A stretch of DNA of 64,000 nucleotides from a virus (IMGVR_UViG_3300034157_000063), one strand, 5' to 3'; numbered from the stretch's first letter, positions 1 to 62,155 are shown. Made by a program: numbers and translations. Notes: generated by a model from the letters alone, not told the origin.

Positions 1-684
1 TTAACAACAGAAGAAACTTCTATTATCAAAGCAAATGCAGACAATGTGCTTGCTCGATTTTATAGTAAGTGGAAATTCGCCTTTTCTAACGATAAAATCT
101 TCTTTGATGAAGCCACAACAGATTTGAACCCTGATTATCATCATGTTCTGAAAACAACAGGCGTTAATGTAAGTACTCTTAAGAAGTTTTCTATTATTGT
201 TTCCGCAAACATTAGGTCTGGAATTTATACTGAACATTATTACAATATCTATATGAGTGTTGATGCTGACAGTATCAACAACTTTAAAACAAAAGACATT
301 GACCCAGAAAAACTCAGAAATGACTTTCAAGCATTTTATCGAAAAGTTATTGGAGATGAATTAAATGAAAATGAAGCGTCTAAATTAATATTTTCTTTTG
401 ATCATAATGCTGTTTTGTTAAGTATTAAGATGACATTTACTCATTACGAAAATCAGGTAGGTCGGCGGGTTGATCAGTGTCTTTATAGAATTGATGATAT
501 TGATAATTTACGCAAACGTAATATGGTTCGTTCTGGCGTTGTTAATTTTTGTAATTTTACATTCCTTTGGGAACATACATTAATTGAAGACATTCTGAAC
601 ACAACTGATTTTTATGAGGCTTATAAAATCTATATTTCAGATATTGAACGTTATCACGATTTAATTCAAATGGAGCGTATTTAA
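1..684 (+). CDS. Hypothetical protein, 5'-truncated by the window; MxxI-tail family; paralog of 686..1387
   Basis: Frame is open from base 1 (LTTEETSIIKAN...). Shares FLWEHTxIEDIL...YxxDIxRYxxLI with the next ORF. Ends LIQMERI. Confidence 0.8.
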   Translation, partial: LTTEETSIIKANADNVLARFYSKWKFAFSNDKIFFDEATTDLNPDYHHVLKTTGVNVSTLKKFSIIVSANIRSGIYTEHYYNIYMSVDADSINNFKTKDIDPEKLRNDFQAFYRKVIGDELNENEASKLIFSFDHNAVLLSIKMTFTHYENQVGRRVDQCLYRIDDIDNLRKRNMVRSGVVNFCNFTFLWEHTLIEDILNTTDFYEAYKIYISDIERYHDLIQMERI

Positions 685-685
685 T

Positions 686-1387
686 ATGACGGACATTAAT
701 AAAACACTTATTGTTAATGATGAAGATATCATAGAGATGTCTTTTGATGTGTTGAGAGGTATATATGCGAAATGGAAAAATGTTTTTAATCAGTCAATTG
801 TAAATGTTAATGACTTTAATAGTGTTATCGAAGATGATCGAGTTCAAATTTTTTTTGCTGATGCACAGCCAATAGCTATCAATGTTTCAGCCACTAAAAC
901 AAGTCTTTTTTATGAAGACCTCAATTATGAAATACTGGCTTGGGTTCGTGAACCATTGGTTAAATTATTTGATACTGATGCACTTAGTATTTATGATCTT
1001 CGTGAAAGATTTTATTTAATGGCTCAAGAGCTGGGTGGTTTTGAATGTGAAAACAAAACACGAGCTAGCAGTGAGTTTTCATTTGATAAGTTTGGTAATT
1101 TAACGAAAGTTAGAGTGATATTTCAAAACCATAAAGATCCTACACTGAGTGATGAGAATTATCAACACCTTTCTGACCATTATATTTATGACATTGATGA
1201 TATAGTTTTTTTGAAAGAAAATGGATTAAATGAACTTTATCAGCCATATTTACGAGACTTCTATTTTTTGTGGGAGCATACACATATTGAAGACATTTTA
1301 ATTGCTGCCGATTTTTTGGCGTCATTTAAGTTGTATGCGGAAGACATTACACGTTATAATTCTTTGATTGCAATGACAAAAATATAA
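686..1387 (+). CDS. Hypothetical protein, MxxI-tail family
   Basis: 233 aa; paralog of upstream ORF; ends LIAMTKI. Confidence 0.85.
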   Translation: MTDINKTLIVNDEDIIEMSFDVLRGIYAKWKNVFNQSIVNVNDFNSVIEDDRVQIFFADAQPIAINVSATKTSLFYEDLNYEILAWVREPLVKLFDTDALSIYDLRERFYLMAQELGGFECENKTRASSEFSFDKFGNLTKVRVIFQNHKDPTLSDENYQHLSDHYIYDIDDIVFLKENGLNELYQPYLRDFYFLWEHTHIEDILIAADFLASFKLYAEDITRYNSLIAMTKI

Positions 1388-1471
1388 ACTAAATGAGCAG
1401 TCCGTCAAAAACAAGTTGATTTTTATGTTATATGTGTATATAATTTGGGAAATTTATATTAAAGGTGAACT

Positions 1472-7827: not shown

Positions 7828-8430
7828 TTAGATGGATGCCATATCAAATATGCTCATTAGCTTGTCAAATTCTTCTTTATTTAAATTTTTGATATATTCT
7901 TCTGAGCATTCTATTTCTATCTTATTAAATGACGTTAACAAAAGATCATATATATTTTTAAAATGATAAGGTTTTTTGTTGGCATGAAGATAACTATAAC
8001 ATTTATCCTTTTTCAAAAAGTTAAAGACTCCGGTGGCCGGAACGATTGAAAAAGTTATATCTATTATTAACCGTTCTATCCATGTCTTTTTATTGTTTGG
8101 ATTTAAATTGTTATAATGATATATTTGATTTGATTCTTCAGTTTGAAACTTATAGACTTGCTCTTTTAATCGCATAATTTTATACATTTCTAATTTTAAA
8201 TCGCAATCATTTATAAATACCTTATTTAAATCTTCAATATTAAATTTTAGAATCTCTCCCAAGTCGATGACACTGTTATTTTCTATATTTTTAATTTGAG
8301 CATAAATATATTTGATTGAAAAATCATCTGGCTTATATCTTTCTACTAGATCAAGAAAGGCCATGTAGTCAATAGAATACACATCATTTAATTTTTTTAT
8401 TAGTTTTTTGCTTATGTTGTAGTTTGACAT
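7828..8430 (-). CDS. Hypothetical protein, MxxI-tail family
   Basis: 200 aa; GGAGG SD; ends IFDMASI. Confidence 0.8.
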   Translation of the reverse strand: MSNYNISKKLIKKLNDVYSIDYMAFLDLVERYKPDDFSIKYIYAQIKNIENNSVIDLGEILKFNIEDLNKVFINDCDLKLEMYKIMRLKEQVYKFQTEESNQIYHYNNLNPNNKKTWIERLIIDITFSIVPATGVFNFLKKDKCYSYLHANKKPYHFKNIYDLLLTSFNKIEIECSEEYIKNLNKEEFDKLMSIFDMASI

Positions 8431-8480: not shown

Positions 8481-9149
8481 TTATCTTCTCATCTGATACA
8501 AATCAGCTAATCGGTATTCAACAGGAGATGGTGCTTTTTTTTCCAACCACTCTTGATTGAGTTTCACACAACGCCCATCAACCGTCATTTCAATAATTTT
8601 ATTGTCAATAGTATATGAATACTTGGCAAAAGTTCCATGTGTTGTTTTAGTATCACCTTTAAATAACATTGGTAGCGTCCATATTTCTTCATAGGTATGA
8701 ATTTTTGTTTCTATTTTCTTAAATTCATCCTTGTAACCAAACTCTTTTGAACGTTCACTGTAAGTATGAGCCGTCAACAGTTTAATATCGCCGTCAATCC
8801 ACTCATTAAGCAAATCATTAGTCTGTAAAAACGAATCCCAGTCTTCTTTGGCTTCATAAGTTCCTGCTTTAATGGCTAACCACGTATGCAGTTGTTCTAC
8901 GGAATACACGTTTTCAGCCGTAAGGATAGTTTCAGACACGTCTAAGACTTCTAATGCTTTGTGAACTGATTTATGTTTTTTTGTTTGAATGACGATTTCT
9001 TCAATAGTAATATTGTGGTCAATATTTTCAAGAGAACGGCTCATTCCATTCATGTAGTCATGAAAGTAAGTAGGGTCACTGGATACTATTGCGAATTTTT
9101 TGTTTGAGAGGTTGCAGAAGGCCACTTTCAATTTGATATTGCTTTTCAT
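8481..9149 (-). CDS. Hypothetical protein with structured 5' UTR
   Basis: 222 aa; AAGGAG SD. Confidence 0.8.
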   Translation of the reverse strand: MKSNIKLKVAFCNLSNKKFAIVSSDPTYFHDYMNGMSRSLENIDHNITIEEIVIQTKKHKSVHKALEVLDVSETILTAENVYSVEQLHTWLAIKAGTYEAKEDWDSFLQTNDLLNEWIDGDIKLLTAHTYSERSKEFGYKDEFKKIETKIHTYEEIWTLPMLFKGDTKTTHGTFAKYSYTIDNKIIEMTVDGRCVKLNQEWLEKKAPSPVEYRLADLYQMRR

Positions 9150-9353
9150 TTTTACACTCCTTTTTATGTGATTGAAGTGCCTCTTTTTATAGACTTGGGG
9201 TTGTCTTATTTATTAGTTATTTTAAATCAATTAAATCTCAATGTCAATCGTTTTTACCATTAAATAAGTTAAAATTTCATAATTATTGACTTTTAACATA
9301 GGGATGGTGTACTAAATTAGATTATAAAACTTATTATATAATGGAGAATAAGA

Positions 9354-9650
9354 ATGATTGACGATGATGATGAAAATAAAAAATGTATGTTTTTGGTATG
9401 GATTGATGAGTTAGATGAAGAATTTGCCTTTAAGTTATTCGATGAGGGTGAAGACAGAGAAAAAGACAGTTACCTAGCAGAAGATTTCATGGGGAACTTT
9501 ATTGAGGTGATTGATGGTAAGATTTATGCTTACGTTCATGATTCTGAACCGTTCCATTTCTTGCTCTTTAAAAATCAAAAAGAATTTCTCAAAAACATTG
9601 AATTATTAACATTTGATGAATATCAAGATATAGTTGATAGCCAAGATTAA
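9354..9650 (+). CDS. Acidic hypothetical protein
   Basis: 98 aa; GGAG SD. Confidence 0.75.
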   Translation: MIDDDDENKKCMFLVWIDELDEEFAFKLFDEGEDREKDSYLAEDFMGNFIEVIDGKIYAYVHDSEPFHFLLFKNQKEFLKNIELLTFDEYQDIVDSQD

Positions 9651-9687
9651 TTTTGGTATAATGACTGTATTAATTAGGAGTTAAATC

Positions 9688-10212
9688 ATGCAAGAAGAAA
9701 AAACTTATTATGGTGATGCTATTGTCTACCTAAGCTTTATTCCAGCTAAGCAGTTAGAATCCATCACAGATAAAACAGTGACTTCTGTGCATTGCTTTCC
9801 AGTGAAAGGTAACGAAATCATGTTTACAACGAATCCACGAGGTATTGATATTATCGGTGGACATGTTGAGAAAGGTGAAACACCAGAAGAAGCTATGAAA
9901 CGTGAAGGCATGGAAGAAGGTTATTTGACCATTAATACCATGAAGCTTATCGGAGCTGTTCGTGTTGACAACAGAGATAACCCGAAAGCTCTTGAATCAG
10001 GTTATCCAGCAGTAGGTTATCAATTGTTTTATGCCGTGACTGACTTCAATACCCATGAATTTAAAGCTGACTTTGAATGCACTAGCCGTATTTATCTTAC
10101 GCAAGATAAAGTCGCTGAAAAACATCATAAATGGTTGAATACTCATACAGAAATTCTCAATGAGATGAATGCTATTTTGAAACCTGTTAGAAAATTGAAA
10201 TCAAAAATGTAA
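9688..10212 (+). CDS. Nudix hydrolase
   Basis: Nudix box GGHVEKGETPEEAMKREGMEEG; basic tail KPVRKLKSKM. Confidence 0.9.
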   Translation: MQEEKTYYGDAIVYLSFIPAKQLESITDKTVTSVHCFPVKGNEIMFTTNPRGIDIIGGHVEKGETPEEAMKREGMEEGYLTINTMKLIGAVRVDNRDNPKALESGYPAVGYQLFYAVTDFNTHEFKADFECTSRIYLTQDKVAEKHHKWLNTHTEILNEMNAILKPVRKLKSKM

Positions 10213-10237
10213 AAAAGCGAACAAAATTAGGCTTCAT

Positions 10238-10600
10238 TTAAAAAAAGTAAAGGTAGATGAAGCCTATCATCAATAAAATCGCATAAAAAATAGTCAATCG
10301 TATTTTAATCTTCTTCAATCTATTAAAAAATGGTGTATCCGGCACTTTTCTGTTGAGCCTGTGATACTTATCATTTTCTCTTGAATAGAGATAGAGCATT
10401 CCATCTTTTTCACCAAAAGAAAAACTTAATCTTCCTTTGTTTTTTATAATTTTATTAACAATTTGTGCTTCTAACACATTTCTACTTCGTTCTTGTGGAA
10501 CGGTTAATATTAAGATATCAACGACTTCTTTGATAGTGAAGTGTCTGTCAGGTTCTTTGTTTAATATCTTTTCAACATGAGATAATATCATATCAGTCAC
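10238..10600 (-). CDS. Membrane-anchored hypothetical protein, possible winged-helix N-terminus
   Basis: C-terminal TM segment LTIFYAILLMIGFIYLYFF; GTG start with AGGA SD. Confidence 0.7.
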   Translation of the reverse strand: MTDMILSHVEKILNKEPDRHFTIKEVVDILILTVPQERSRNVLEAQIVNKIIKNKGRLSFSFGEKDGMLYLYSRENDKYHRLNRKVPDTPFFNRLKKIKIRLTIFYAILLMIGFIYLYFF

Positions 10601-10718
10601 TCCTATTTTTCTTTTTAATGTATTCGTTATACGACTAAAGTCAAATAGCTTCTTGTATTAATGATTGACAAATTATGCCATTTTTAGTAAAATAATGCTA
10701 ATTTATAGAGGTCATTTC

Positions 10719-11339
10719 ATGAATGAGCGAAACATTATATTTACGCCTGAAAATATTATTTCAACCTTTGGCCTAGTCATTGATGATCGCTTTCAATATG
10801 ACATTGAACAATCGAATGGTTCTTTTCTTATTTCCTCAAAATTTTCTATTACAAAAAAAAATCAATCTAAAAAGTCCGATGATTGTTTTTCAACTGATAA
10901 TTATGAGGATGTGCTAAATCCTTGTATTGTAGCACTTGTTAATACTAATTTTAATAAAGATGGCTCTTTTACAACCGCTATTGACTTTAATAATCAGGCT
11001 ATCAGCAATTTATTAAAAGTGAGCAATAGATATCTTGAAGTATATAAGCTTATGTATGACATTAAAGAATTTAATAAGTATGATAAAGTTGATCTGGTTT
11101 TCATTGCTGATTATGAATTTACCAATAAGTTAACAATGTCTCATGTTTATTGTCAAAAAATAAAATTTCTTGAATATGTTGACGATTATCAGGGGCCAAT
11201 CGAAACTGATGTTCATTATTTTGTTAATGATTTCTTAAAAAGTTTGGATATTAAGTGCATTGATGAGCATACAGACATGGAGAATCTATATCCACTAATA
11301 GAAATGCAAAGAACAATTAACCATATGGAGAGGATTTAA
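10719..11339 (+). CDS. Hypothetical protein, MxxI-tail family (triplet member 1)
   Basis: ATG 10719 after GAGG; IFTPENIISTFG N-terminus shared with next two ORFs; ends INHMERI. Confidence 0.85.
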   Translation: MNERNIIFTPENIISTFGLVIDDRFQYDIEQSNGSFLISSKFSITKKNQSKKSDDCFSTDNYEDVLNPCIVALVNTNFNKDGSFTTAIDFNNQAISNLLKVSNRYLEVYKLMYDIKEFNKYDKVDLVFIADYEFTNKLTMSHVYCQKIKFLEYVDDYQGPIETDVHYFVNDFLKSLDIKCIDEHTDMENLYPLIEMQRTINHMERI

Positions 11340-11341
11340 AT

Positions 11342-11968
11342 ATGTCATCAATGAACGGGAATAACGTCGTTTTTAGTGCTGAAAATATAATATCGACTTT
11401 AGGTATCAATATTCAAGATGACTATAATATTAAATTTGAACCTGACCCAAGTGCTATTGATATTACGTCGAGATTTATGATTGAAAGCAAATCAAATCCA
11501 TACTCTGGTTTCTACATTGCCAGCGATAACTTTGAGAACAGTGCGACTCCCGGTTATATCGCGTCATTGCCAACCAATTTGACACGAGATGGCGTTGTCA
11601 CAATTAAGCTTGATATGCATTTACCAGAAATGACAAAAATAATGAAACGTGTAAATGATTATATTCAATTTTTTATGGTGATTAATGACCAAAAAGGTTT
11701 CTATGTTCATGAGACAGTTAGATTAGAAATTATGACTGATTATAAGTATACAGATGTTTTGTTGCTTACAAATGTCGAACTTTTTAATTTTGTCCTATAC
11801 TCACCATTAGAAACAAATTATAAGAAAAAAGAAATTAACATTGAAGATTTTGTTAATACTTATCTTTCTAAACTAGGTGTAGATAAGATTGATGCACACA
11901 CTGATGTTGATGCTTTGATGGTATTGGTGAAAATGCAGAAAACACTGGAAGCTATGGTAGCCATATAA
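11342..11968 (+). CDS. Hypothetical protein, MxxI-tail family (triplet member 2)
   Basis: VFSAENIISTLG; ends LEAMVAI. Confidence 0.85.
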   Translation: MSSMNGNNVVFSAENIISTLGINIQDDYNIKFEPDPSAIDITSRFMIESKSNPYSGFYIASDNFENSATPGYIASLPTNLTRDGVVTIKLDMHLPEMTKIMKRVNDYIQFFMVINDQKGFYVHETVRLEIMTDYKYTDVLLLTNVELFNFVLYSPLETNYKKKEINIEDFVNTYLSKLGVDKIDAHTDVDALMVLVKMQKTLEAMVAI

Positions 11969-12032
11969 TTTAAATATCACATTATTGATTATACTTTAGT
12001 ATTAATGTACCTTGTGGTTTTGGAGATTTCTA

Positions 12033-12632
12033 ATGAATAACATTGCTGTTTTTACAGAACAAAATATGATATCAAGCTTAGGCATTGAGACTAATGATGA
12101 CTTTGATGTTGAATTTTTTCGAGAAGACTCTTATGAGCATATGACATCGAGCTTATCTGTTACAGGTAGAGAAAAACAAAGTTATGGACTTTTTATTAAC
12201 AATTTAGAAACAATTAACAAAATATCATCTGTAATAGAATTCGAACCGATGTTAAGCCTTGATGGTGTTATTAAGACTTTTGTTCCTATGAACAATCCTA
12301 AAATAAAAAGTGCTCTCTATTTAATTAATCAATATATCAAAGTATTTATGGCTATTTATAGCGTTGATGAATTTAACAAGTACGATAGTTTTATGTTAAA
12401 GTTGATTGTTGATTACAACAAGGATCTAGAAATTATTAATGTAACCTCTACCACCGATCTTTTTAAATTTTATAGCTGGCATCATGATCTTGTTGAAATT
12501 GAAATTGAATCATATATTAACAATCTACTGAATCAGGTTGGTATTGAATCTCTTAATGAAGATAGTGATATTGAACAAGCCATTGATCTTTTGAAAATGC
12601 AAGAGTTGATCTATGAGATGGATTTAATTTAA
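12033..12632 (+). CDS. Hypothetical protein, MxxI-tail family (triplet member 3)
   Basis: ATG 12033 after GGAG; VFTEQNMISSLG; ends IYEMDLI. Confidence 0.85.
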   Translation: MNNIAVFTEQNMISSLGIETNDDFDVEFFREDSYEHMTSSLSVTGREKQSYGLFINNLETINKISSVIEFEPMLSLDGVIKTFVPMNNPKIKSALYLINQYIKVFMAIYSVDEFNKYDSFMLKLIVDYNKDLEIINVTSTTDLFKFYSWHHDLVEIEIESYINNLLNQVGIESLNEDSDIEQAIDLLKMQELIYEMDLI

Positions 12633-12647
12633 TAAACCAGATAAAGA

Positions 12648-12670
12648 AAAAAGACACCCTAGTGTCTTTT
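12648..12670. terminator. Bidirectional terminator
   Basis: AAAAGACAC-ccta-GTGTCTTTT between convergent genes. Confidence 0.7.
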
Positions 12671-12690
12671 CTTATTTTTAAAATTTTTAA

Positions 12691-12894
12691 TCAATGATTA
12701 TGAAAGGTGAAATTATTGGTTGGTTCATGATCTATCTTGTTCCATACTTTTTCGTGGAAGTAGAAAACAACCGTATTAATCATTGGCTCAACAATCGCCA
12801 TTAGACCACCTACCATCCAGCTACCTGTAAAAGCGTAACCTACTGTAAAGGCAACCATCATGTGTAGAATACCAAAGCTAATTGTCTTTTTCAT
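12691..12894 (-). CDS. DUF2061-family small membrane protein
   Basis: KTISFGILHMMVAF...VEPMINTVVFYFHEKVW is the characteristic DUF2061 pattern. Confidence 0.85.
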   Translation of the reverse strand: MKKTISFGILHMMVAFTVGYAFTGSWMVGGLMAIVEPMINTVVFYFHEKVWNKIDHEPTNNFTFHNH

Positions 12895-12978
12895 TTTCTA
12901 TCTCCTTTTTCTTTTAGTTTTAGCACACAAAAAAGAAGATTTAAAATTTATTAAAATGATTGCTTTAATAGTTTATTA

Positions 12979-14163
12979 CTATTTGTTTTTTAAAGTGTTT
13001 CTTTTTCTTTCTTTTCTTTCTTTGACATCATCTTTAATGTTTTCCATTGTTTCTGGTAGATTATTGATCATGTTATTTAAGAATTTTTTTAATTTGTCCA
13101 TTTCATCATCAACCATTCTTGATCGTTGACTGGATGTTAAAGATTTATCTTTATAAATTTCTCTTAGCTTGTCATTATGACCTTCATAGGTTTCTTTTTG
13201 TTTATAACCAATCATTCTTTTGTAAAAGTCTTTATTTTGTTTGTCCAAATAAGGCGTAATACTCTTTAAGGCGGTATAATCAATAGGCGTAGAATCACGG
13301 TATTTAATGTGGATATCAAAAACATGTGCTATAAGATCATTCGCTATCTTTTTGACTAATTCACGTTGTGGTTTTCTTAATAGCTCGTAATTTTCAAAAA
13401 ATTTAGTGTCTGGCACGTATATTTTTATCGAACTGGATTCTTCACCAAACCTGTGGTGGTCTAATTTAACGATGACAATATTATCTTCTGCAACTAATAA
13501 TTTATCTTTTGTAAATCCTGTTTTCGTCTGGCTGAATTTTTCTAGATACTTGTCTAAGAGTAACTGACAATTAGCATCAGTTATTATTTTATTCTTATTG
13601 ATGATGAGATAGGTGAGTAAATCATCTTCATTTCCAGCATGTGTTTTTACATAGTTATTGACATCAAACTCTTTTGAGCGGACAAGTTCTTTGAAACTTT
13701 TTACTTTAAAGACTTCGCAAGGAATTAATGCATTAGGACGGAACAAGACTTCACTTTCCACTGCTTGGCCGGATAGGTTAACATCCACTACGGTGCCTTT
13801 CTTTGCCGTAGCAGTCAATATAACACCACAGTAGCCCGCGATCTTTTCGCCTTGAACGTTACGCTTTGCTTCTTCTATTACGACTTCCATTGTAGGGAAA
13901 TACGTTTTAGTCGTTGTTGAGAAATCGTAAGCTGTGTCGTAACGTGGTGAGAACCCAGCAGCTTCTGATGATTGATAACCACCAGTAGCCTTTAACTCTT
14001 TTAAAAAGTCTTCATATTTTTCTTTTGTTGAAAAGTTAATTCCACGATATACTGTAATGTCTTCTTCGTTAGGCCATTCAGCAAGCATTTTATTAAAATC
14101 GGATTCAAGATAAATAGGATTTTCGTCTTTTGTGTAACTTCTTAACTTTTGTTCTATGTCCAT
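12979..14163 (-). CDS. Putative ADP-ribosyltransferase (R-S-E clade) with helical C-terminal region
   Basis: TVYRG ... SSEAAGFS ... VESEVLF motifs in canonical order in the N-terminal ~150 aa; basic tail. Confidence 0.55.
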   Translation of the reverse strand: MDIEQKLRSYTKDENPIYLESDFNKMLAEWPNEEDITVYRGINFSTKEKYEDFLKELKATGGYQSSEAAGFSPRYDTAYDFSTTTKTYFPTMEVVIEEAKRNVQGEKIAGYCGVILTATAKKGTVVDVNLSGQAVESEVLFRPNALIPCEVFKVKSFKELVRSKEFDVNNYVKTHAGNEDDLLTYLIINKNKIITDANCQLLLDKYLEKFSQTKTGFTKDKLLVAEDNIVIVKLDHHRFGEESSSIKIYVPDTKFFENYELLRKPQRELVKKIANDLIAHVFDIHIKYRDSTPIDYTALKSITPYLDKQNKDFYKRMIGYKQKETYEGHNDKLREIYKDKSLTSSQRSRMVDDEMDKLKKFLNNMINNLPETMENIKDDVKERKERKRNTLKNK

Positions 14164-14284
14164 TGTCAATAAGATCTAGTGTTTGTATTACTATTGTATC
14201 ATTGATTGATTTTTTTGAAAGAACTGTTGTGTTATACTTTATAATCTTATATAATAAAACCATTTAAATGAGGTTTAAATAGTT

Positions 14285-14992
14285 ATGTTGTTATTGATGC
14301 GAAGTCTTCTTGAATCTTGTTTGAAAATGATGACGTTTAGAACTATAAAAAAATACCATTATCGAGTTATTATTGAGCAAATTTTTATGCGTTTAAATAA
14401 ACTCTATAATACAACTGAATATACTTCTTTAAACTATCCAATGAAAGTTTCTGGTAATGTATTTGTTGAGTGTTGTAATCATACCAGTGGTGAAACATTG
14501 ATCTCTTTTGCTATACCATGGGAAGATGGCATAGCTGTAATAAAAAATTTTGATTTAAGTTGTCTAGATTTTTTTAAAGAGCATTTTTGTTACATAACTC
14601 GTTATTCAACAATCAACAATTTCCATTCAGTGGCTTATTTCAATAATGGAAAAATTACTAGATTTTACTTTATTATGACCATATGCTCGGCTTCAGGCCC
14701 GAGAAAAGATAATAATTATATAGAATTATCTATTACTACTGATGATCAATTTCATCTCTTGGAAATAGTAAAAAAATTATGTGTGTACTCTCCTACTTCC
14801 ATTGTTTCCAAACACTTAATTAAAAATAATGTTTCTTTTGATGATGAACTCAAATTAATAAAGCTGAAAGCTCAATCTCAAAATCCAGAAATTAATATAT
14901 TGATACCTGAAATCAATACACCATCAGCCTACGATTTCAATTCAGATGATTTTAACAATCGTTTGTTATTGGTATCAATGCTGGAGAGTTAA
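14285..14992 (+). CDS. Hypothetical protein, MxxI-tail variant
   Basis: Ends LVSMLES; start uncertain (14285 or 14387). Confidence 0.75.
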   Translation: MLLLMRSLLESCLKMMTFRTIKKYHYRVIIEQIFMRLNKLYNTTEYTSLNYPMKVSGNVFVECCNHTSGETLISFAIPWEDGIAVIKNFDLSCLDFFKEHFCYITRYSTINNFHSVAYFNNGKITRFYFIMTICSASGPRKDNNYIELSITTDDQFHLLEIVKKLCVYSPTSIVSKHLIKNNVSFDDELKLIKLKAQSQNPEINILIPEINTPSAYDFNSDDFNNRLLLVSMLES

Positions 14993-15003
14993 TCATTTAA
15001 TGG

Positions 15004-15032
15004 TTGACCAAAGGTTAGTATTATGGTATTAT
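15004..15032 (+). promoter_or_regulatory. Sigma70-type promoter of the leader-alkB unit
   Basis: TTGACC-17 nt-TATTAT with TG extension. Confidence 0.7.
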
Positions 15033-15062
15033 AATCTCTCTCAAATAAAAGGATAAATTATC

Positions 15063-15095
15063 ATGAAACTCCAAAGTCTACGACAACGGCATTAA
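15063..15095 (+). CDS. Leader peptide MKLQSLRQRH upstream of the AlkB-like gene
   Basis: AAAGGA SD; rare CTA/CGA/CGG codons; 15064-15073 is complementary to the alkB SD region 15146-15155. Confidence 0.65.
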   Translation: MKLQSLRQRH

Positions 15096-15159
15096 ACCTA
15101 AACTTTCGTTTAATTGTATTACATTGTCTTAAATTTAACTAATTATGGAGTTTTAAAAA

Positions 15160-15711
15160 ATGAAACCTATTTATGTCGCAAATTTCGTGGCTAATCCTGA
15201 TGCTGTGTTCAAAAGATTATTGAACGAGTTAGAATGGAAAAGATACGGAAACAAACCTAGAAAAGAATACTACTGCAACGATCACGATGTGCCTTATAGT
15301 TATGGCAATCCCGAGTTTGCGGATACCTATACTAGAAGTCCTTACAGTGATGACATCTTGGATATCAGATACAAGTTGGAAGAAGAATTGAAATCTATTT
15401 TTGATGTCTGCTTTTTAAATTTGTATGATGACTTTGCCGGTCACATTGGATGGCACGCTGATGACAGTCCAGAAATGGACCCTGACAGACCTATTGTCAC
15501 TGTTAGTTTGGGTGCTGAAAGAGAAATCTGGTTTAAAGAAAGACCTTCTGAAACCAGTTCTAAGGAAGTCACTAAGATTAAGTTAGGACATGGGAGTGCT
15601 TGTATCATGCCAGCCGGTATGCAAGCTACAGACTTACACAGAATCCCTAAGAATGACAGACCTTGTGGTGAAAGGGTTAGTTTGACTTACAGAGGTTATA
15701 AGTTCATATGA
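15160..15711 (+). CDS. AlkB-family 2OG-Fe(II) dioxygenase
   Basis: IGWHADD (HxD), VSLGAER, distal H, RVSLTYR motif. Confidence 0.92.
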   Translation: MKPIYVANFVANPDAVFKRLLNELEWKRYGNKPRKEYYCNDHDVPYSYGNPEFADTYTRSPYSDDILDIRYKLEEELKSIFDVCFLNLYDDFAGHIGWHADDSPEMDPDRPIVTVSLGAEREIWFKERPSETSSKEVTKIKLGHGSACIMPAGMQATDLHRIPKNDRPCGERVSLTYRGYKFI

Positions 15712-17086: not shown

Positions 17087-17089
17087 TAT

Positions 17090-17791: not shown

Positions 17792-17797
17792 ATCCTT

Positions 17798-42798: not shown

Positions 42799-42889
42799 AT
42801 AATAATTATTTTTATAGTCCATTTATGCTTATCTTTTTGTTGAAAAAACAATGGGTAAATGGTATAATCTTGTAAATTACGAGGATTTG

Positions 42890-47474: not shown

Positions 47475-49151
47475 TTATTTATTTTCAACCGTCATCTTTG
47501 ATAAACATGGATAGGTTTCAATACCTAAGATATTACAGCCTTTCTCAATGACATCCTTCACTGCCGCGATCAAACATAATTTCTTATACTCTTCTTCATG
47601 TCCCAATATTTTTTCACTTTCGTAATATTTGTGGAATAAAGTACATAAGCTGACTAGTTGAGTGGTTAAATAATGACTTTGATACTCAGTACTCATTTCA
47701 TTGATAATCTCTTGAGTTTTCAAAATATTAAAGAATAAAGCATTTTCCTGATTATTTAAAATCAGATCATCAGTGATGGTCAATTTAGGTTCATTCATAT
47801 TGTATTTCTTAAACAAAATTGAATCAATCCGCACATAAGCATTTTGAAGATAAGGAGCTGAACCACCAGAAAAGTTTAAGACATGTTTCCAGTCAAACAC
47901 ATAATCTTGATGCTTGCTTAATTTTAAATCATGAAATTTAAGACCACCTACAATCGTTTTATTCAACAACTCAGTTTGTGTCTCACCTGAAAGCTTTGTA
48001 AAGTGTGGAGACTTTAATAATTCATTTTTACCTTCCATTAACAAATCATCCAAATACAATGATTTTCCTGTTTTTGTTTTGATAGGTTTGTTATCTTCAC
48101 CTAAGATGGTACCGAAACCCAAATGGATAAGCTTATTTTTATCGGTTGCATAACCTACTTTTTTAGCAATCATGAAGATTGTTTCAAAATGCAGTGACTG
48201 CCGTTTATCAACCACATACACTATTTTATCTGGGTTATGTTGTTCTACCCGCCATTTGATAGCCGCTAAATCATAGAGAGCATACAAAAAGGTGCCATTC
48301 GTTTTTTTGATGACCAGCTTGTTATTTTCAAGTTGAACATACACCGAACCATTCTCATCAACACTGGCAATTTGTTTATTGATTAAGTCCACAACGATTT
48401 CATGACAGAACTGAGCAAAGAAGCTTTCACCTTTGGTATCCGCAATGGTCAATTTGAGCTTAAATTCTTTAATTGTAGATTCTAGGTCAATCAAACTAAT
48501 ATCGACACATTTTTGCCATAATGCTAGCAATTCATCATCAAGTTTATTTTGAAGCTTGTACGCAACATTATCAGATTCAAGTGCAAATGAATTATCATCA
48601 CTTTCTTTGGATAGGTTATAGGCAGTATAGGCGAGCTTATAATACTCAGTGAGCTTTTGATTGTCCAAGTTGTTTGCTAAATCATTCTTCATAATGTAAT
48701 TGAGTAGGAAACCAAACTGATTGCCCCAATCACCAACATGATTATATGAAATAACTTCATCACCCATGTTCTGATGGCTCCGAACAACAAAGTCGCCAAT
48801 AAACATAGACCGTATATGACCGATGTGCATTTTTTTTGCAACGTTAACACCACAGTAATCGACCACCACTGTTTCTTTTGGTTTTGTTTGCACTGTTTGT
48901 GCATTCATTAAATTCATTTTGAAAGACAAAAAAGCCTTACCCGTAATTTCAATGTTTTCGTAATGAGTTGTTTTCAATAAATAAGCAATCAAGCTGGCTG
49001 TGTCAAAGTCGCCTTTTTTATTTAATTGAAAAAGAATAGATGTTTGATAATGAAAATTTTCAAAACTTGAATACGATACATCAACCGTTAACGTGATGTT
49101 TTTTGATGTCAGATAATTTTGGATATCCGATTTAATAATGGACTTGTACAT
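47475..49151 (-). CDS. argS: Arginyl-tRNA synthetase
   Basis: VVVDY...NVAKKMHIGHIRS (HIGH), NHVGDWGNQFG, YVVDKRQSLHF, KTKTG, PYLQNAYVRI (DALR domain); 558 aa. Confidence 0.95.
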   Translation of the reverse strand: MYKSIIKSDIQNYLTSKNITLTVDVSYSSFENFHYQTSILFQLNKKGDFDTASLIAYLLKTTHYENIEITGKAFLSFKMNLMNAQTVQTKPKETVVVDYCGVNVAKKMHIGHIRSMFIGDFVVRSHQNMGDEVISYNHVGDWGNQFGFLLNYIMKNDLANNLDNQKLTEYYKLAYTAYNLSKESDDNSFALESDNVAYKLQNKLDDELLALWQKCVDISLIDLESTIKEFKLKLTIADTKGESFFAQFCHEIVVDLINKQIASVDENGSVYVQLENNKLVIKKTNGTFLYALYDLAAIKWRVEQHNPDKIVYVVDKRQSLHFETIFMIAKKVGYATDKNKLIHLGFGTILGEDNKPIKTKTGKSLYLDDLLMEGKNELLKSPHFTKLSGETQTELLNKTIVGGLKFHDLKLSKHQDYVFDWKHVLNFSGGSAPYLQNAYVRIDSILFKKYNMNEPKLTITDDLILNNQENALFFNILKTQEIINEMSTEYQSHYLTTQLVSLCTLFHKYYESEKILGHEEEYKKLCLIAAVKDVIEKGCNILGIETYPCLSKMTVENK

Positions 49152-52283: not shown

Positions 52284-53060
52284 ATGTCGATGACAGAAGC
52301 TGAACGTAAAGACTATATCCAACAAGAAATTTGCTCAGTAGCCACTGCTGGTATTGATATTGAACCCGAAGATAACTATACGCAACACAACATTGTCTAT
52401 TGCTTGAAACATAAATATTTAACATCGAAAGAATACTGGCTCAGTCATACTGATGATATGGCTCATCGTGGTATTCGTATTCATAAATCTAAAACCCAAC
52501 CATGCCCACGTCGAAATTTCGATGATCTTTTTACTTCTGTGAATAAGTTTAATGACTCACAAGCTCGCTATATTGCAAAGACAGTGGCTTACTTGATTGA
52601 ATGTATTACACCATCAGAACAAGACATTGCTGATACTATTCTGGCTCATTATGCAGGGCAGCATAAACAATATTGTTTTAATTATTATACATCAGTCTCG
52701 CATCTAGAATCTTTTTATGTCATTGACGACTATGTTAAGTTTCCAGATGAGGGCTTGTGTGAGCATATGAAAATTCACTTCAACTCTTATCGTGATGACT
52801 TTCACATTCATCGAAACATTCATTTCTATGTGATTGGGACAGACTTAATTTGCTCAGCCAGTATGAAAGGCACTAATTATGTGGTGGTTGATCGTAATCA
52901 AGACCATAGGGTGTTGGCCTGTAAGATTCTTGAATCCATACTTGAACCTTTGCTTAAAGGATTGGATTATAATCATGAAGATATTACGCCAGCTAATGTT
53001 AAAGAGTTCTTCAGTAAAATTGTTGAATTTAAACAATTGACTGAAATGGTTGATATTTGA
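52284..53060 (+). CDS. Hypothetical protein, MxxI-tail family
   Basis: Ends LTEMVDI. Confidence 0.8.
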   Translation: MSMTEAERKDYIQQEICSVATAGIDIEPEDNYTQHNIVYCLKHKYLTSKEYWLSHTDDMAHRGIRIHKSKTQPCPRRNFDDLFTSVNKFNDSQARYIAKTVAYLIECITPSEQDIADTILAHYAGQHKQYCFNYYTSVSHLESFYVIDDYVKFPDEGLCEHMKIHFNSYRDDFHIHRNIHFYVIGTDLICSASMKGTNYVVVDRNQDHRVLACKILESILEPLLKGLDYNHEDITPANVKEFFSKIVEFKQLTEMVDI

Positions 53061-53104: not shown

Positions 53105-53950
53105 ATGCATTTAAATGAAAAATCAAAATTAGATGATGTTTTAAAGGTTCTCAAAAATGACCTCGGCGGGGATGATGTCGATGATGGTTATATCTATTCA
53201 CAAGCTTTATTAAAAAAGCTAACTTACGCTAATGAGCCATTAGAAATCAGATTTATTGATATTACAGGACTTGGGTTTTATTCACTGACAATGGCTGGTG
53301 CAAGTGTTGAGAATATGTTTAGTGGTTTGATGGCATTACATTGTAATTATAGTATTAATTTTGACTACTTTAATAAGGTAATGCGGGCTATCTCTGATGT
53401 GGCTTCTAAGGCTTACGTTATCAAGAAACCTTTTAAAGAAATCAATTTAACGGGATTGAATTGGCAAGACGCTTACATTCGTTATACCCGAACTGACAAT
53501 CAATCTCATCGTCACTCTTTTAATATTAATGGTGCTCATACCATTTTTAACAATAATAAAGTTTCTTATGACGTTGAACCTAGCTTGATGTACGAATCCA
53601 GTACGTTCAATGGTTGTATCGGTTATTTTGATGCTGGTAATCGAGACAATTCGTGCTCTGGTTTTGTTATGAGAATGCAGTGTTCTTGTCGATCTCTTAC
53701 TGACCACTCTTTTGCCAACTATTCATTTTTTGTTTCATTAGATGAAAATAATCCATTTATTTTAATGGAAGATGGAAAGATTGTAACAGAAGAACGTTTT
53801 AAATTTTACGTTGAACAACACTTATATAAGTTTCTTTATAGAACTTTTATTTCGACGGGTGTTGGGACAGATACTATCAATGAATTGAAAGCATTCACCA
53901 AAACTGAAATGCAAGACATTGTTAAAATACATGAGATGGTAAAAATGTAG
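53105..53950 (+). CDS. Hypothetical protein, MxxI-tail family
   Basis: Ends IHEMVKM. Confidence 0.8.
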   Translation: MHLNEKSKLDDVLKVLKNDLGGDDVDDGYIYSQALLKKLTYANEPLEIRFIDITGLGFYSLTMAGASVENMFSGLMALHCNYSINFDYFNKVMRAISDVASKAYVIKKPFKEINLTGLNWQDAYIRYTRTDNQSHRHSFNINGAHTIFNNNKVSYDVEPSLMYESSTFNGCIGYFDAGNRDNSCSGFVMRMQCSCRSLTDHSFANYSFFVSLDENNPFILMEDGKIVTEERFKFYVEQHLYKFLYRTFISTGVGTDTINELKAFTKTEMQDIVKIHEMVKM

Positions 53951-56230: not shown

Positions 56231-57133
56231 ATGACTCATTTAAAAGAATTGTACCCAACCATTGACCCCAAGTATCAGATTGTTTATAAAAATGAACGTT
56301 CATTATTGGGTAAATCAGAAGATCTGCACTATTTGATTAATAAAGCTGATAATGCCGTTGTTGTGATGGACAGCAATAAACATCCTAACCATATGGGGAT
56401 TTTTGTTTTCAGAGATAATCTCTTGGTTAACAGTTTTAATGTGAAGCACCTTTTTATTAGTCAGCATACTAGCTATACCCCAGAAGGCATTGAACAAGAG
56501 CGTTGGAAAATGTATGTTGAATTTCTCGAACCTTATTATTCAAATGATTGTGCTATCCAGTTAGGCACTGTTATTAATGATCAAGTGAATCATTTTATGA
56601 AAAGCGTAGCATATTATAAAGTGCATATTAATTTTGTCCAAGAACATGGTCAACAAGTTTTAAATAATATTGAAATTGAAGATAAAGTCTATAATTTTAA
56701 GTATAAAGCCATTGTTCGTGATGGACTTGTTTACTTTACAATGATGTTTAACGACGACCCAGACCAAGAAGAATTTGTTAAAGGTAAGTTTAATCTGCAG
56801 GACTATACGCATTATGAGTCAGCCGGTGGTTATGTGATTGATTCTTTTGCAGGTGACTGGTTTATTGCTGAGACACACTATGATCCTTATTTGAAGCTTT
56901 ATCAATACAAAACTGTTCGTTATGAGGATTCAAAAGTACTAAAAGACAGCGACCTACTGAAAGACTATCAGGAGTATGATGTTAACTTTATTTTCAATTT
57001 TATCTATGATAGTGTGATTATTCATCATCCAAAACACAGTTTTATTGAAAAGCTAGTTGAATTGTCTATTTTGAGTGATGGTGAAAAATTGACCCATGAA
57101 CACATGAATATTTATGCTATGGCAACCATTTAG
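56231..57133 (+). CDS. Hypothetical protein, MxxI-tail family
   Basis: Ends IYAMATI. Confidence 0.8.
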   Translation: MTHLKELYPTIDPKYQIVYKNERSLLGKSEDLHYLINKADNAVVVMDSNKHPNHMGIFVFRDNLLVNSFNVKHLFISQHTSYTPEGIEQERWKMYVEFLEPYYSNDCAIQLGTVINDQVNHFMKSVAYYKVHINFVQEHGQQVLNNIEIEDKVYNFKYKAIVRDGLVYFTMMFNDDPDQEEFVKGKFNLQDYTHYESAGGYVIDSFAGDWFIAETHYDPYLKLYQYKTVRYEDSKVLKDSDLLKDYQEYDVNFIFNFIYDSVIIHHPKHSFIEKLVELSILSDGEKLTHEHMNIYAMATI

Positions 57134-58620: not shown

Positions 58621-59493
58621 ATGCAACTACACGATTACTACAAAAAATATGGACAATCTTTCCTGACTGCGGATGAATTCCTTACGCACTGGGGCGAATC
58701 TGTTCAATTTAAATTAATGGACAATCGTGTCTGTGCCAGTCCACTTTACATTCGCAAGCTTGTCACTGACAAATTAAACTCTTTGTTTAAAATTGATTCA
58801 GTATCTGATGAAATTCATCACAAGATGATGACTGCTTATTTCGAAGCTTTGATTGAATTCAATATTATTCCTTTGGAGACTGAGTTTAAAGATAACTTAC
58901 ACTTTGATTCAGATAAAGTTCGTATTTTCCAGAAAGGATTCCTTAATTTCCGTAGACCAAAAACTTTAGCCTTTCCACATGAGTTTGAGACTCAACACTT
59001 GGTTGATCGGGTTATTTTTAATAATGCCATTTTCATTGATGATAAAAGTCAATACAACTTTTACACCATTATGTCTAATTACGGTAATGGTAATGTTGAT
59101 AATGAGTTCATGAAATTCTCTTATTACATTATTGATGGTGTTTTTCATTTTCAAGCCCCTAAATCAGCAGATAAAATGCAAGTGATTGTTTCTATGCCTG
59201 TTGATGAAATAAATGACCATTATGACCACTTCAAGCAGTTAATAAAGAAAAAATTGTTTACCACCTTTTATGAAAACATCAGTAAAATTGTTTTCAGACG
59301 AGTGTTAGACTTTGACACCTTTAATTCGAAACATTTAGCGGTTTTAATTATGTTGGGTGGTCAACCTATTCGAGAGTTGATGTCGTTTATGGAAGAAAAT
59401 GAGTACTTGAATGATATATTCTCGTTAAACGATGATGAGATCTATGAACTTTACAAAGTTTCTTTAACCACTTTTGAGATGATAAAAATATGA
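58621..59493 (+). CDS. Hypothetical protein, MxxI-tail family
   Basis: Ends TFEMIKI. Confidence 0.8.
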   Translation: MQLHDYYKKYGQSFLTADEFLTHWGESVQFKLMDNRVCASPLYIRKLVTDKLNSLFKIDSVSDEIHHKMMTAYFEALIEFNIIPLETEFKDNLHFDSDKVRIFQKGFLNFRRPKTLAFPHEFETQHLVDRVIFNNAIFIDDKSQYNFYTIMSNYGNGNVDNEFMKFSYYIIDGVFHFQAPKSADKMQVIVSMPVDEINDHYDHFKQLIKKKLFTTFYENISKIVFRRVLDFDTFNSKHLAVLIMLGGQPIRELMSFMEENEYLNDIFSLNDDEIYELYKVSLTTFEMIKI

Positions 59494-60236
59494 CTACAAT
59501 CACGTCGAGTGCCAAACATAAACTTGAACATGATATTTTGGCGGAATTTCCTGAATTTGCTAAGAAGATTGGCTTGAATGGTTATTCTTATATGAAGTTG
59601 AATGAAGATAAGGATATGTTTCATATGAATGACAAAGATAAAACTTATTTGTTCACACCTTCGTATAAACTTGATGAAGGCTTTGGTGATTTTGATGCCG
59701 GTCATCCTGTTGAATTTAAAATGGTAGCCACTCTGTTTAAAGACGACACATTGAAAATTAATAATATAGATTTCGAATTCCATGATAATGATGACCATCT
59801 ATTAAAACAATTAGTTCATTTGCATGACCTCACCAATTATTTAGCTAATTTTAAAGAATTGTCATCTTTTATTTTGGCTCGTTCTGATATTGTTGAGCAC
59901 TTGGCACCCACATTGAAATTTAATTTTGAGGGTGTCTTGATTGAGCTTGGGGGCGTTTTTAAATATTCTGAAAGTTATCTGCATGGACCTTCATCCGCAA
60001 GAAGCAGTAATCGTTATTATACCAATTCATTAAGTCTTTATAATGAGGATTATAATAGATTCTATAAGATTACGAACCCACAAGAAGCCCTGATATTTGC
60101 TAAAATGTCTTTTTTAAGTATTCATGATGAAAATATTCAAGAGTTATTTGACACAGAAGACTGGGAAGATTTGTATAATAAATTTAAAGACAATCCAGAA
60201 GCATTTTTAAGTTTATATGACATGACAAAAATTTAA
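59490..60236 (+). CDS. Hypothetical protein, MxxI-tail family
   Basis: ATGA overlap; ends LYDMTKI. Confidence 0.8.
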   Translation: MTTITSSAKHKLEHDILAEFPEFAKKIGLNGYSYMKLNEDKDMFHMNDKDKTYLFTPSYKLDEGFGDFDAGHPVEFKMVATLFKDDTLKINNIDFEFHDNDDHLLKQLVHLHDLTNYLANFKELSSFILARSDIVEHLAPTLKFNFEGVLIELGGVFKYSESYLHGPSSARSSNRYYTNSLSLYNEDYNRFYKITNPQEALIFAKMSFLSIHDENIQELFDTEDWEDLYNKFKDNPEAFLSLYDMTKI

Positions 60237-60287
60237 CAATTCTTAATTTTATGCTATAATAAAGCAACTATTTAATGGAGTTTTAAC

Positions 60288-61403
60288 ATGAAAGATCTTG
60301 ATTATTCAATTATATTCAAAGCTGCCCATACATTGATGTTTGATGTTGATCCTGTAAAAGCTGAATCTGACGTTCATTATTTGGAAAAAGAAGAAGTGGC
60401 CTTTTTTGATACTTATTTCAAAGCAACTGTCATGACGAAGAAAGTTAATCTTCAAGGTCATCACAGAGGTGTATATGATGGGCTTACTTTGCAAGAAATT
60501 AAAGACACAATGGAATATGATTACCTTGTACAACGTTATTGTGACCAAATCAAATTTTTGATTTCTTATCAACTTTTTGGAGAGATCTTAAAACATAAAG
60601 AAGAACTTAAAAATGATACAGATAACGTTATCCAAGATAAAATCATAACAGCATTCATCAGAACATTTGATGCCTCTTTTTTGAAGGTTGATCATTATTG
60701 TTTTGTTTGTGGTGTTACCACTAAGTCATCATTCAAAAATGGGCTGTTTACTAGCGTTGTTTCAGAAGATAGCCGAATGGGTAAGTTTGAAGGACATCAG
60801 CCTTGTAAACTAACAAAAGGTATTGATGAATACACTTACAAACTCAATATCCCATCAGGAAAAATGTTGTTTGCTAATGACCTTCGTGAATTATTCCCAG
60901 AATTTTCTCGTTTTGAAGCTGATAAGTATATTACTGAAAAATCAGGTTACACCAATAGTATCAATAGTGAGCTAGGTGTAATGTATACACAAGAGTTTTG
61001 GAACAATCATGGTATGATTTATGTCCAAGTTGGGAATACTTCTCCACATGTATTTCAAGATTCCATTACAAAAAATATTGAAGTAAAATTTGAATCCATT
61101 TATACACCACGAGAAGTTGAAGAGGATCTTGATAGTGACGATGATGAAGATCCTGATTATGTAAAAAACTATACAGATACTGAAAAAGATTTGGGTTATG
61201 TTTGCACCGATCTTTGGGCTGTGTGTGCAATTGATCATGATTTGATGAAAGATCTTTGTAAGAAACATAAGATTGATTTTAAAGAATTGTCAGGTAGTTG
61301 CATTACCGTGAATGTTGAGCCGGGTGAATACAATGTACGTTCATTTAATGCGTCTCATGATTCCAGTAAGAATACATTCTTTTCTGTATCAAAGGCCGAA
61401 TGA
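60288..61403 (+). CDS. Hypothetical protein with CxxC and an acidic loop
   Basis: 371 aa; CFVCG; YVCTDLW; GGAG SD. Confidence 0.8.
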   Translation: MKDLDYSIIFKAAHTLMFDVDPVKAESDVHYLEKEEVAFFDTYFKATVMTKKVNLQGHHRGVYDGLTLQEIKDTMEYDYLVQRYCDQIKFLISYQLFGEILKHKEELKNDTDNVIQDKIITAFIRTFDASFLKVDHYCFVCGVTTKSSFKNGLFTSVVSEDSRMGKFEGHQPCKLTKGIDEYTYKLNIPSGKMLFANDLRELFPEFSRFEADKYITEKSGYTNSINSELGVMYTQEFWNNHGMIYVQVGNTSPHVFQDSITKNIEVKFESIYTPREVEEDLDSDDDEDPDYVKNYTDTEKDLGYVCTDLWAVCAIDHDLMKDLCKKHKIDFKELSGSCITVNVEPGEYNVRSFNASHDSSKNTFFSVSKAE

Positions 61404-62155
61404 TGATAAATAAAGTTAAAGACATTGATAAATCAAAGTTAGACCGTATGATTGCTATTGGACTTGAATCCATCAATCATAAAGGTCTACTAAAAAGATT
61501 GTTTACATTAGATGACGTTACAGTAATGACATCTTATGATGGGGTCAATGTTACTATTGAATTTAAAGACACCAAAACTAATGTGTCTATTATAGATTCC
61601 GTATATCAAAAAACAGTGGAAACAAAAACTGATCAATTTATTAAGATTGTTGATAGTCCGCTTGCGGCTCAATTTAAATATCATGTTCTTTTAAATATTG
61701 ATTTAACTTTATTTATTCATTGTGGAGATGAAAAGTCATTCAAAGATGCGATTGAAAATAAAATTATGTTTTATAATGACGACTTTGAACTTTGTTATAT
61801 TCATGAAGCCTTTCATCTTCATAATTATTTTAAAATTAAATATATGATGTCAGAATTCTATATTGGCTATGATTTTGATAAGGATTACAACCCTGTTGGA
61901 AAACTGTTTGTAGGCAATCAGCGGGGGCTTTTTAATGGTATTGTTGATAAATACAATTCTAAGTTTAGGACTTATCAACAGGGCTTTAATGTTGAAGACG
62001 AAAACTTACTCTTAAAACATTATGTGTTAATGGATTCATTAGAAACTTTTGATGAGATATTTACACAGTTTTATGGACCATTACCGAAACCATTAGACAT
62101 AGATTTAGTTCACGATCAACTTAAGTTAGCCAATATGGTTTTATTTAATCAATAG
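61400..62155 (+). CDS. Hypothetical protein, MxxI-tail variant
   Basis: Ends LANMVLFNQ (motif plus 2 residues). Confidence 0.8.
   Translation: MMINKVKDIDKSKLDRMIAIGLESINHKGLLKRLFTLDDVTVMTSYDGVNVTIEFKDTKTNVSIIDSVYQKTVETKTDQFIKIVDSPLAAQFKYHVLLNIDLTLFIHCGDEKSFKDAIENKIMFYNDDFELCYIHEAFHLHNYFKIKYMMSEFYIGYDFDKDYNPVGKLFVGNQRGLFNGIVDKYNSKFRTYQQGFNVEDENLLLKHYVLMDSLETFDEIFTQFYGPLPKPLDIDLVHDQLKLANMVLFNQ

Follow-up and report, generated by a model that had tools for sequence, protein, structure and literature searches.

In the DNA stretch IMGVR_UViG_3300034157_000063, presented as viral and 64,000 nucleotides long (the window, in the following, is this whole stretch as analysed), many proteins with dissimilar bodies end in nearly the same few residues, which raises the question of what a common protein end is doing on so many genes of one element. 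A sequence-only reading had listed about 26 such proteins, or about a third of the open reading frames (ORFs), with Met as the fourth residue from the end. This was borne out: counting both strands, the window has 75 non-nested ORFs with a length of 80 aa or more, of which 25 had Met exactly at position -4 from the C-terminus, and a 26th case, ending VLKMRLI, was found on a 34-aa ORF (19257-19364, minus strand) outside this set. The Met belongs to a 15-residue terminal helix, here called the tail, which marks a huge, element-restricted and fast-evolving class of orphan proteins.

The tail and its exact register

With an internal Met frequency of 2.6% in the window ORFs, the binomial probability of the excess at -4 was ~5e-21, and at each of the other C-terminal positions from -1 to -15 Met occurred 0-4 times. 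The full motif [LIV]xxMxx[ILVMF] ended 19 ORFs, and these made up 19 of its 54 occurrences in the whole set of 75. Eighty unrelated bacterial loci, originally fetched for another purpose, supplied 509 control ORFs, of which four had Met(-4) and none the full motif.

Relatives of the window carry the same tail. It ends in full about 38 of the 432 ORFs of a 290-kb IMG/VR contig (G001; 27% G+C), which was found by a family-based scan and read whole, and 11 of the 24 ORFs of L018, which belongs to an ENA contig of 1,843,594 bp and shows synteny with window positions ~9,000-27,000. A DNA-level signal or an artefact of ORF calling, for instance a regulatory sequence at gene ends, has a negligible chance of accounting for this. 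The codons used for the conserved Ile and Leu differ among the tagged ORFs, each of the three stops occurs after the tail (16 TAA, 5 TGA and 4 TAG in the 25 window ORFs), the sequence 3′ of the stop is not conserved, and neither the distance nor the orientation of the neighbouring gene is fixed. Because codons vary, three stops are used and the downstream sequence is unconserved, a DNA-level motif was rejected and the signal was placed in the protein; the tail is likewise kept as protein among relatives of 27%, 31% and 32% G+C. An alternative genetic code or readthrough was ruled out by the use of all three stops after the tail together with the lack of downstream conservation.

The tail profile was built from the 25 window and 38 G001 tagged proteins (n = 63), aligned on the C-terminus. 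Information content exceeded 0.35 bits at nearly all positions from -15 to -1, with the exception of -2, and was near background upstream. The consensus, [DE]-L-T-x-[DE]-D-h-x-L-h-[EQ]-M-h-x-I-COOH, reads as an N-capping box (L-T-x-x-D/E) followed by about 12 helical residues. Hydrophobic residues made up 78% at -9, 98% at -7, 68% at -6, 100% at -4, 59% at -3 and 92% at -1, and Met was present at -4 in all 63 proteins. A single polar stripe runs along -15, -12/-11, -8, -5 and -2, which leaves about two-thirds of the helix surface to hydrophobic residues. Positions -15, -14, -13, -11, -9 and -5 were conserved as well, which constitutes independent support since they were not used in choosing the tagged set. 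The acidic stretch that had been noticed before the tail was recovered in the profile, with Asp or Glu in 48% at -15, 41% at -11, 22% at -10 and 43% at -5; Asp was at least as frequent as Glu, and there was no run of Glu. A second subtype of the tail, PSAYDFNSxxFxxRLxLxxMxxx, was seen in ORF 14285-14992 and several G001 proteins.

When the Met column was hidden and all ORF ends were scored against the profile at offsets 0-7, with the 99.9th percentile of internal windows as threshold, 60 of the 63 tagged tails scored above it. About three to four other ends were tail-like without Met, and only three were tail-like with an extension of one or two residues; because such ends are so scarce, both the Met and the exact stop look selected. 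A lost stop normally adds several residues, and the near absence of extended ends over about 50 protein families thus indicates that extension is selected against. The terminal helix, Met(-4) and the end of the chain three residues later are accordingly all under selection.

A conserved module longer than 15 residues was considered and dropped. Hidden Markov models (HMMs) trained on one genome (window or G001) and tested on the other by residue window separated tagged from untagged proteins with an area under the curve (AUC) of 0.77 for residues -45 to -16, and far-upstream and N-terminal windows (0.55-0.74) usually did as well. Body composition alone, with the tail removed, separated the two classes better across genomes (AUC 0.86-0.92), and the separation upstream of -15 was therefore attributed to composition.

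Unrelated bodies and their predicted structures

The tagged proteins are orphans throughout. A Pfam domain was found in none of the 25 tagged window ORFs, compared with about 13 of 50 untagged ones (Fisher P 0.003), and in none of 61 tagged proteins of the window and G001 together, when the 96 largest untagged G001 ORFs matched 36 families; a PHROGs search with ten tagged proteins gave nothing significant. The remark that no recognisable enzyme carries the tail has consequently held. Recognised proteins of the window, all untagged, include ArgRS, M3 peptidase, PcfJ-like protein, DNA methylase, Thg1, a small AlaRS-like protein, AlkB-type oxygenase, isochorismatase, phosphoesterase, HAD hydrolase, M23 peptidase and NUDIX hydrolase. 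Transmembrane-like segments are rare in tagged proteins, which are slightly more acidic, low in Gly, Ala, Trp and Pro and high in Phe, Asn, Tyr and Ile. Their bodies contain ~2.6% Gly and 3.1% Ala, as compared with 4.5% and 5.2% in untagged proteins, and their genes 30.2% G+C as against 33.7%; the tagged bodies have a distinct, AT-driven composition.

For comparison of the bodies the last 16 residues were removed, and BLAST and iterative HMM searches were run over the window and G001. About 50 separate families resulted, almost always either all-tagged or all-untagged, with tagged proteins from 90 to 415 aa in length. Joining the families into one failed with iterative HMMs and with a superfamily profile of 38 sequences. 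As far as sequence comparison reaches, then, the bodies are fast-diverging and fall into dozens of unrelated families, in agreement with the sequence-only reading, which had sorted them into many families by eye.

Within families the tail is retained. For family A3, which consists of 18499-19260 and two paralogues, the databases hold 27 relatives, all metagenomic, in which the Met is invariant (27/27), and the 15 tail residues hardly differ in orthologues down to 56% identity. For family A6 (37230-38477 and 38493-39716) an exhaustive search of 1.84 billion representatives matched only 26 proteins, and all full-length remote homologues (E-values from 1e-32 to 3e-4) end h-[TSNC]-x-x-x-h-x-h-h-x-M-x-x-h-COOH. 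As these all keep the tail, it has been inherited vertically within deeply diverged superfamilies. There was no sign of the tail having been shuffled onto known domains, and the earlier proposal of a modular tag was in this respect not supported.

Tagged genes also change faster than their surroundings. Between window and L018 orthologues the tagged bodies were 67% identical and the untagged bodies 87% (P 0.003), while the tagged tails were 79% identical; the tail is more conserved than the bodies, which in turn change more quickly than neighbouring proteins. One tagged orthologue pair (14285-14992) retained only 33% identity between flanking enzymes at 78-95%, and the tandem tagged arrays differed in copy number, with three copies in the window and four in L018 for the family at 10665, and three plus a remnant as against four for the family at 17090.

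The explanation that we tentatively favour, at somewhat less than even chances, is that the capped C-terminal helix serves as a common recognition module for a shared partner, carried by the orphan class of a giant plasmid-like element. The exact register, the all-or-none distribution by family and a conservation higher than that of the bodies give the look expected of a shared recognition element. From the docking system suggested by the sequence-only reading, the constant helix on unrelated bodies, its all-or-none occurrence and its exact free end were supported, when the free tail, the modular shuffling and the phage hub were not.

A free tail is made improbable by AlphaFold2 models, computed with family alignments, of two proteins from unrelated families, 18499-19260 (A3; mean predicted local distance difference test, pLDDT, 74.7, fair) and 37230-38477 (A6; pLDDT 85.8, good). 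Both models are alpha+beta, neither has a convincing relative in PDB or BFVD, and both end in three to four beta strands (a beta-meander), a helix 19-21 residues long, a short loop and the tail helix. The latter spans residues 242-252 of 253 after a helix at 213-233 in the first model, and 404-414 of 415 after a helix at 376-394 in the second. Because loop and tail helix are placed with confidence (pLDDT 84-93 in both families) and the hydrophobic pattern covers about two-thirds of the helix, the tail is probably built into the structure, as a terminal helix that packs in cis or within an obligate complex, and is not a floppy tag; its burial is read from pLDDT and hydrophobic pattern only.

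Such features weigh against a helix offered to an external partner. The pLDDT values and hydrophobicity fit a cis-packed helix, unlike the disordered and degenerate signals of type IVB secretion; a cryptic shared C-terminal domain is possible, since both models have the same end arrangement; and position -1 is not uniformly hydrophobic, as endings in MKNS, MNNT and MYLE occur. They lead to a rather unlikely but substantial alternative, the main rival, in which all tagged proteins would derive from one or a few ancient families of the element that have diverged beyond recognition, the helix is purely structural, the most constrained core or self-association element of a shared C-terminal alpha/beta domain, and no external hub exists. 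This is in line with the confident placing of the tail and the like ends of both models, with its vertical inheritance in remote homologues and with the common composition of the tagged bodies. Moreover, the best local alignment of A3 with A6 by hhalign (78 columns) was anchored at the C-terminus, weak colinear alignments connect several tagged G001 proteins of 340-390 aa, and twilight-zone BLAST hits between bodies were about twice as frequent between tagged proteins as between tagged and untagged ones. The same comparison of A3 with A6, however, gave a probability of only 0.14%, the 38-sequence A6 superfamily profile matched no other tagged protein even at E <1, the lengths vary from 90 to 415 aa, and what discriminates the classes upstream of -15 is composition alone. 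A buried site would also normally accept Leu or Ile, whereas the Met is nearly invariant in about 50 families and extended ends are almost lacking. A buried helix within one shared fold, which the sequence-only reading had named as the finding that would overturn it, is thus favoured by the like ends and packed appearance of the two models and opposed by the hhalign result and the unmerged families.

The tagged ORFs and the element that carries them

The tagged ORFs occur singly and in tandem. At the 5′-end of the window, 46-684 (plus strand, 212 aa, LIQMERI) and 686-1387 (plus, 233 aa, LIAMTKI) are paralogues, followed by 7828-8430 (minus, 200 aa, IFDMASI). The array headed by 10665-11339 (224 aa, INHMERI) comprises three paralogues on the plus strand, with 11342-11968 (208 aa, LEAMVAI) and 12012-12632 (206 aa, IYEMDLI), and the second tail subtype is found at 14285-14992 (plus, 235 aa, LVSMLES). 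The A3 paralogues 17090-17791 (233 aa, LFEMYLE), 17798-18502 (234 aa, VLEMNNT) and 18499-19260 (253 aa, VIQMGLI) lie on the minus strand. Further on the plus strand are 25059-25757 (232 aa, LSAMVNI), 25769-26992 (407 aa, LLSMINI), 32157-32963 (268 aa, VFEMDNI), 33697-34620 (307 aa, ISEMIKI) and the paralogues 34644-35447 (267 aa, VEKMYII) and 35448-36275 (275 aa, VEKMYTI). The A6 pair, 37230-38477 (415 aa, LEQMKNS) and 38493-39716 (407 aa, LQQMKNS), is again on the minus strand, and the remaining tagged ORFs are on the plus strand: 41995-42798 (267 aa, VSNMLKV), 45645-46310 (221 aa, LVSMMQF), 52284-53060 (258 aa, LTEMVDI), 53105-53950 (281 aa, IHEMVKM), 56231-57133 (300 aa, IYAMATI), 58621-59493 (290 aa, TFEMIKI) and 59490-60236 (248 aa, LYDMTKI).

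Three near variants had been proposed in addition. Of these, LANMVLFNQ (61400-62155, plus, 251 aa), one of the three extended ends, scored as a true tail with a two-residue extension (Met-masked score 9.4 at offset 2), when LSEIVDF and LLKIIRYS fell below the score threshold. A possible degenerate tail, also below threshold, ends the 180-aa ORF 19395-19937 (minus; ELMMVRIYHYK), which by eye has Ile in the Met slot and an extended end and looks like a degenerate relative. Adjacent to it, the 34-aa ORF at 19257-19364 looks, from its sequence, like what an in-frame deletion has left of a tagged gene for 246 aa, which L018 carries intact (8501-9241). By reading, an N-terminal piece (about residues 24-46) is joined to the last nine residues of that paralogue, although the automatic alignment did not assign the N-terminal piece to that site; the junction appears at a repeated (D/E)xLT microhomology, and the tail is retained.

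Untagged proteins often have Lys/Arg-rich ends (e.g. 23150-23923, 12979-14169, 9688-10212 and 42851-45025). Lys and Arg made up 20% of their last ten residues in the window, as compared with 12% overall, and 15% as compared with 11% in G001, with 6-10% in tagged proteins; this may merely reflect AT-rich gene ends. Translation-related genes are also present on this mobile element, i.e. a full ArgRS, a small AlaRS-like protein (tRNA-synt_2c) and a Thg1-type tRNA-His guanylyltransferase, with ORFs of this cluster at 47475-49151 (minus) and 27144-27980 (plus). Among the few plasmid-flavoured window genes is that of the PcfJ-like protein (28457-29584, minus); the PcfJ family has members on the conjugative plasmid pCF10 and in several PHROGs without an assigned function. 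The three largest uncharacterised window proteins (724, 537 and 521 aa), looked at as possible hubs, had no Pfam, PHROG or PDB relatives. The largest of them (42851-45025, plus) has two paralogues in G001 (633 and 628 aa).

The window has 31-32% G+C throughout and no tRNA genes, when G001 contains 35, redundantly including 11 tRNA-Leu(UAA), 6 tRNA-Met and 4 tRNA-Arg(UCU). Two of the 35 have a CUA (amber-reading) anticodon (L011:19840-19914 and L012:849-923), and TAG still ends tagged window genes. Pfam families in G001 include Shufflon_N, pentapeptide repeats, TnpB, WHH and colicin-type nucleases, Metallophos, phosphoesterases and Trypsin_2 (PF13365). The M3 peptidase of the window was no more than 24-30% identical to anything in 185,579 species genomes and pointed to no host, and no sequence match was found in E. 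coli RefSeq genomes or PLSDB.

The element looks giant plasmid-like rather than phage-like. The sequence-only reading had placed the tagged proteins in a phage, as an early host-takeover or anti-defence arsenal, and tails docking on a phage hub (a clamp, protease or packaging machine) in a takeover or virion-cargo system would now be a very improbable explanation. It could draw on the sigma-70-like promoters, modestly enriched over shuffled sequence (124 vs 98 ± 10), on the listing of G001 as viral by IMG/VR, and on one untagged protein, the 724-aa ORF, with a weak match (39% over 82 aa) to the 642-kb uncultured phage LR756502. Yet no capsid, terminase, portal or tail family was found by Pfam and PHROGs in the large ORFs of the window, nor in the listed Pfam families (25 of the 36) of the 96 largest untagged G001 ORFs, and 50,697 phage records gave no DNA-level match. 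What the relatives do have are genes for shufflon, pentapeptide and TnpB proteins and colicin-type nucleases, together with 35 redundant tRNAs, and one of them is a 1.84-Mb contig; the takeover framing found no support.

Closest in general features are the pMEGA megaplasmids of Enterobacteriaceae, of very low G+C, with ~80% hypothetical genes and up to 1.58 Mb in size, for which parts of a Vir/Dot/Icm-like type IV secretion system (T4SS) and a coupling protein are reported (bioRxiv 10.1101/2025.09.30.679422). The element and its relatives share with them the low G+C (27-32%), mostly hypothetical genes and tandem paralogue arrays, and G001 in addition the redundant tRNAs, the multicopy pentapeptide/beta-solenoid, shufflon/pilin, TnpB and phosphatase genes and the nuclease toxins. 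They differ in that the abundant class of pMEGA proteins is alpha-solenoid, when the two models here are alpha+beta, and in that one relative here reaches 1.84 Mb as against 1.58 Mb. No shared tail motif is reported for pMEGA, since neither “C-terminal” nor “C-terminus” occurs anywhere in the paper (bioRxiv 10.1101/2025.09.30.679422).

Candidate readers of the helix and known C-terminal signals

The helix is the last part of a helix-loop-helix with which a very large class of soluble orphan proteins specific to these elements ends. If it is a recognition module, all of them may engage one shared partner that reads the helix together with its free carboxyl terminus. Speculatively, and by analogy, this partner could be the site at which the element's own coupling machinery for secretion or conjugation, a VirD4/DotL-type or FtsK-type ATPase complex, recognises its substrates; our confidence in a secretion coupling machine as the reader is low. 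In that case the tagged proteins would form an arsenal for export, or they might be jointly handled in some other way, and enzymes presumably working in the donor cell would be without the tail. Stated in full, the helix might be the address label of an undescribed protein-sorting or export system of giant bacterial extrachromosomal elements, in which one receptor, be it a coupling ATPase complex or another machine, reads the capped helix ending M-x-x-h-COOH. Rapidly diverging proteins, several hundred of them and as much as a fifth or a third of the genes, would be handled through it, for example by delivery into recipient or competitor cells. We regard this as possible but doubtful. A recognition module with a partner of this kind is disfavoured by the absence of T4SS, FtsK-type, Clp and PDZ proteins both from the scans of window ORFs and from the Pfam families listed for G001 (25 of 36), and by a targeted search for FtsK_SpoIIIE (PF01580), which was negative in G001, with none in window ORFs. 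Besides, the link to pMEGA consists of shared features only, as the E. coli RefSeq genomes contained no matching sequence.

One AAA+ protease or unfoldase (Clp, FtsH or Lon) could also be the common reader, the helix being a degron or a chaperone/adaptor handle for shared turnover or activation. We consider this improbable, even though an exact C-terminal register is typical of C-terminal degrons, as which ssrA/ClpX and the recognition of non-polar C-termini by FtsH are known. The tail shows no sequence likeness to known degrons, it is modelled as a packed helix, and no such protease was found in the window; on the favourable side, G001 encodes a trypsin-like protease (PF13365), and ClpP partners and three FtsH-like proteins are reported for pMEGA-type elements (bioRxiv 10.1101/2025.09.30.679422).

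Whatever its role, the tail divides the proteome of giant plasmid-like elements (1-2 Mb, ~80% unannotated) into tagged orphans and untagged proteins, about one quarter of which are recognisable enzymes, and offers a common way into hundreds of dark proteins. Were it a recognition signal, the tagged set would be a ready-made substrate list, and a mobile bacterial element would run signal-based sorting or export at the scale of the Legionella effector repertoire. Were it only structural, the helix would mark out a very large family-of-families, confined to these elements, in which it has outlasted all other detectable similarity.

Single short C-terminal tags that define a cargo class are known from the peroxisomal signal PTS1 (SKL-COOH, read by PEX5) and from the cargo-loading peptides of encapsulins. 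Those tags are short, exposed and borne by known enzymes, in contrast to a hydrophobic helix that is confined here to orphans, with no receptor or shell gene found.

A further parallel is the type VII secretion system ESX-1, where the LxxxMxF/I-COOH end of EsxB is read by a pocket of the FtsK-type ATPase EccC (PMC6954902). Both stand at the end of a helical hairpin, with Leu at -7, a Met that is conserved and a hydrophobic residue as the last, and in ESX-1 the exact end is required for binding. No EccC-type ATPase was found in G001 or among the window ORFs. The Met is at -3 in ESX-1 and at -4 in all 63 proteins here, when Leu/Ile/Val at -7 and Ile at -1 fit. ESX-1 substrates are WXG100 hairpins of ~100 aa with a tail that is disordered until bound, unlike the 200-415-aa alpha+beta bodies and the packed helix modelled here.

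Dot/Icm (type IVB) substrates resemble the tagged proteins as a class: hundreds of unrelated, fast-evolving and mostly orphan carriers have their signal in the last 20-30 residues, and housekeeping enzymes are without it. The acidic residues of these signals, about 10-15 positions from the end, may have a counterpart in the Asp or Glu at -15 and -11 of the tail, where the conserved unit is -15 to -1. A hydrophobic residue is found near -3/-4 of these signals. IncI-type and Dot/Icm-type systems are accompanied by shufflons, and a shufflon domain is present in G001; no Dot/Icm gene was found in the DNA read. DotM, as part of the coupling complex DotL-DotM-DotN, binds the acidic E-block (PMC5802825). 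The signals of Dot/Icm are degenerate, without order and without any invariant residue, whereas the tail is stereotyped and helical, with an invariant Met and more Asp than Glu. Since the defining features of neither family are shared, the likeness to ESX-1 and Dot/Icm is at most that the tail works like their signals: a short protein end, kept in register with the free carboxyl terminus, by which a large set of dissimilar proteins would be recognised as one class.

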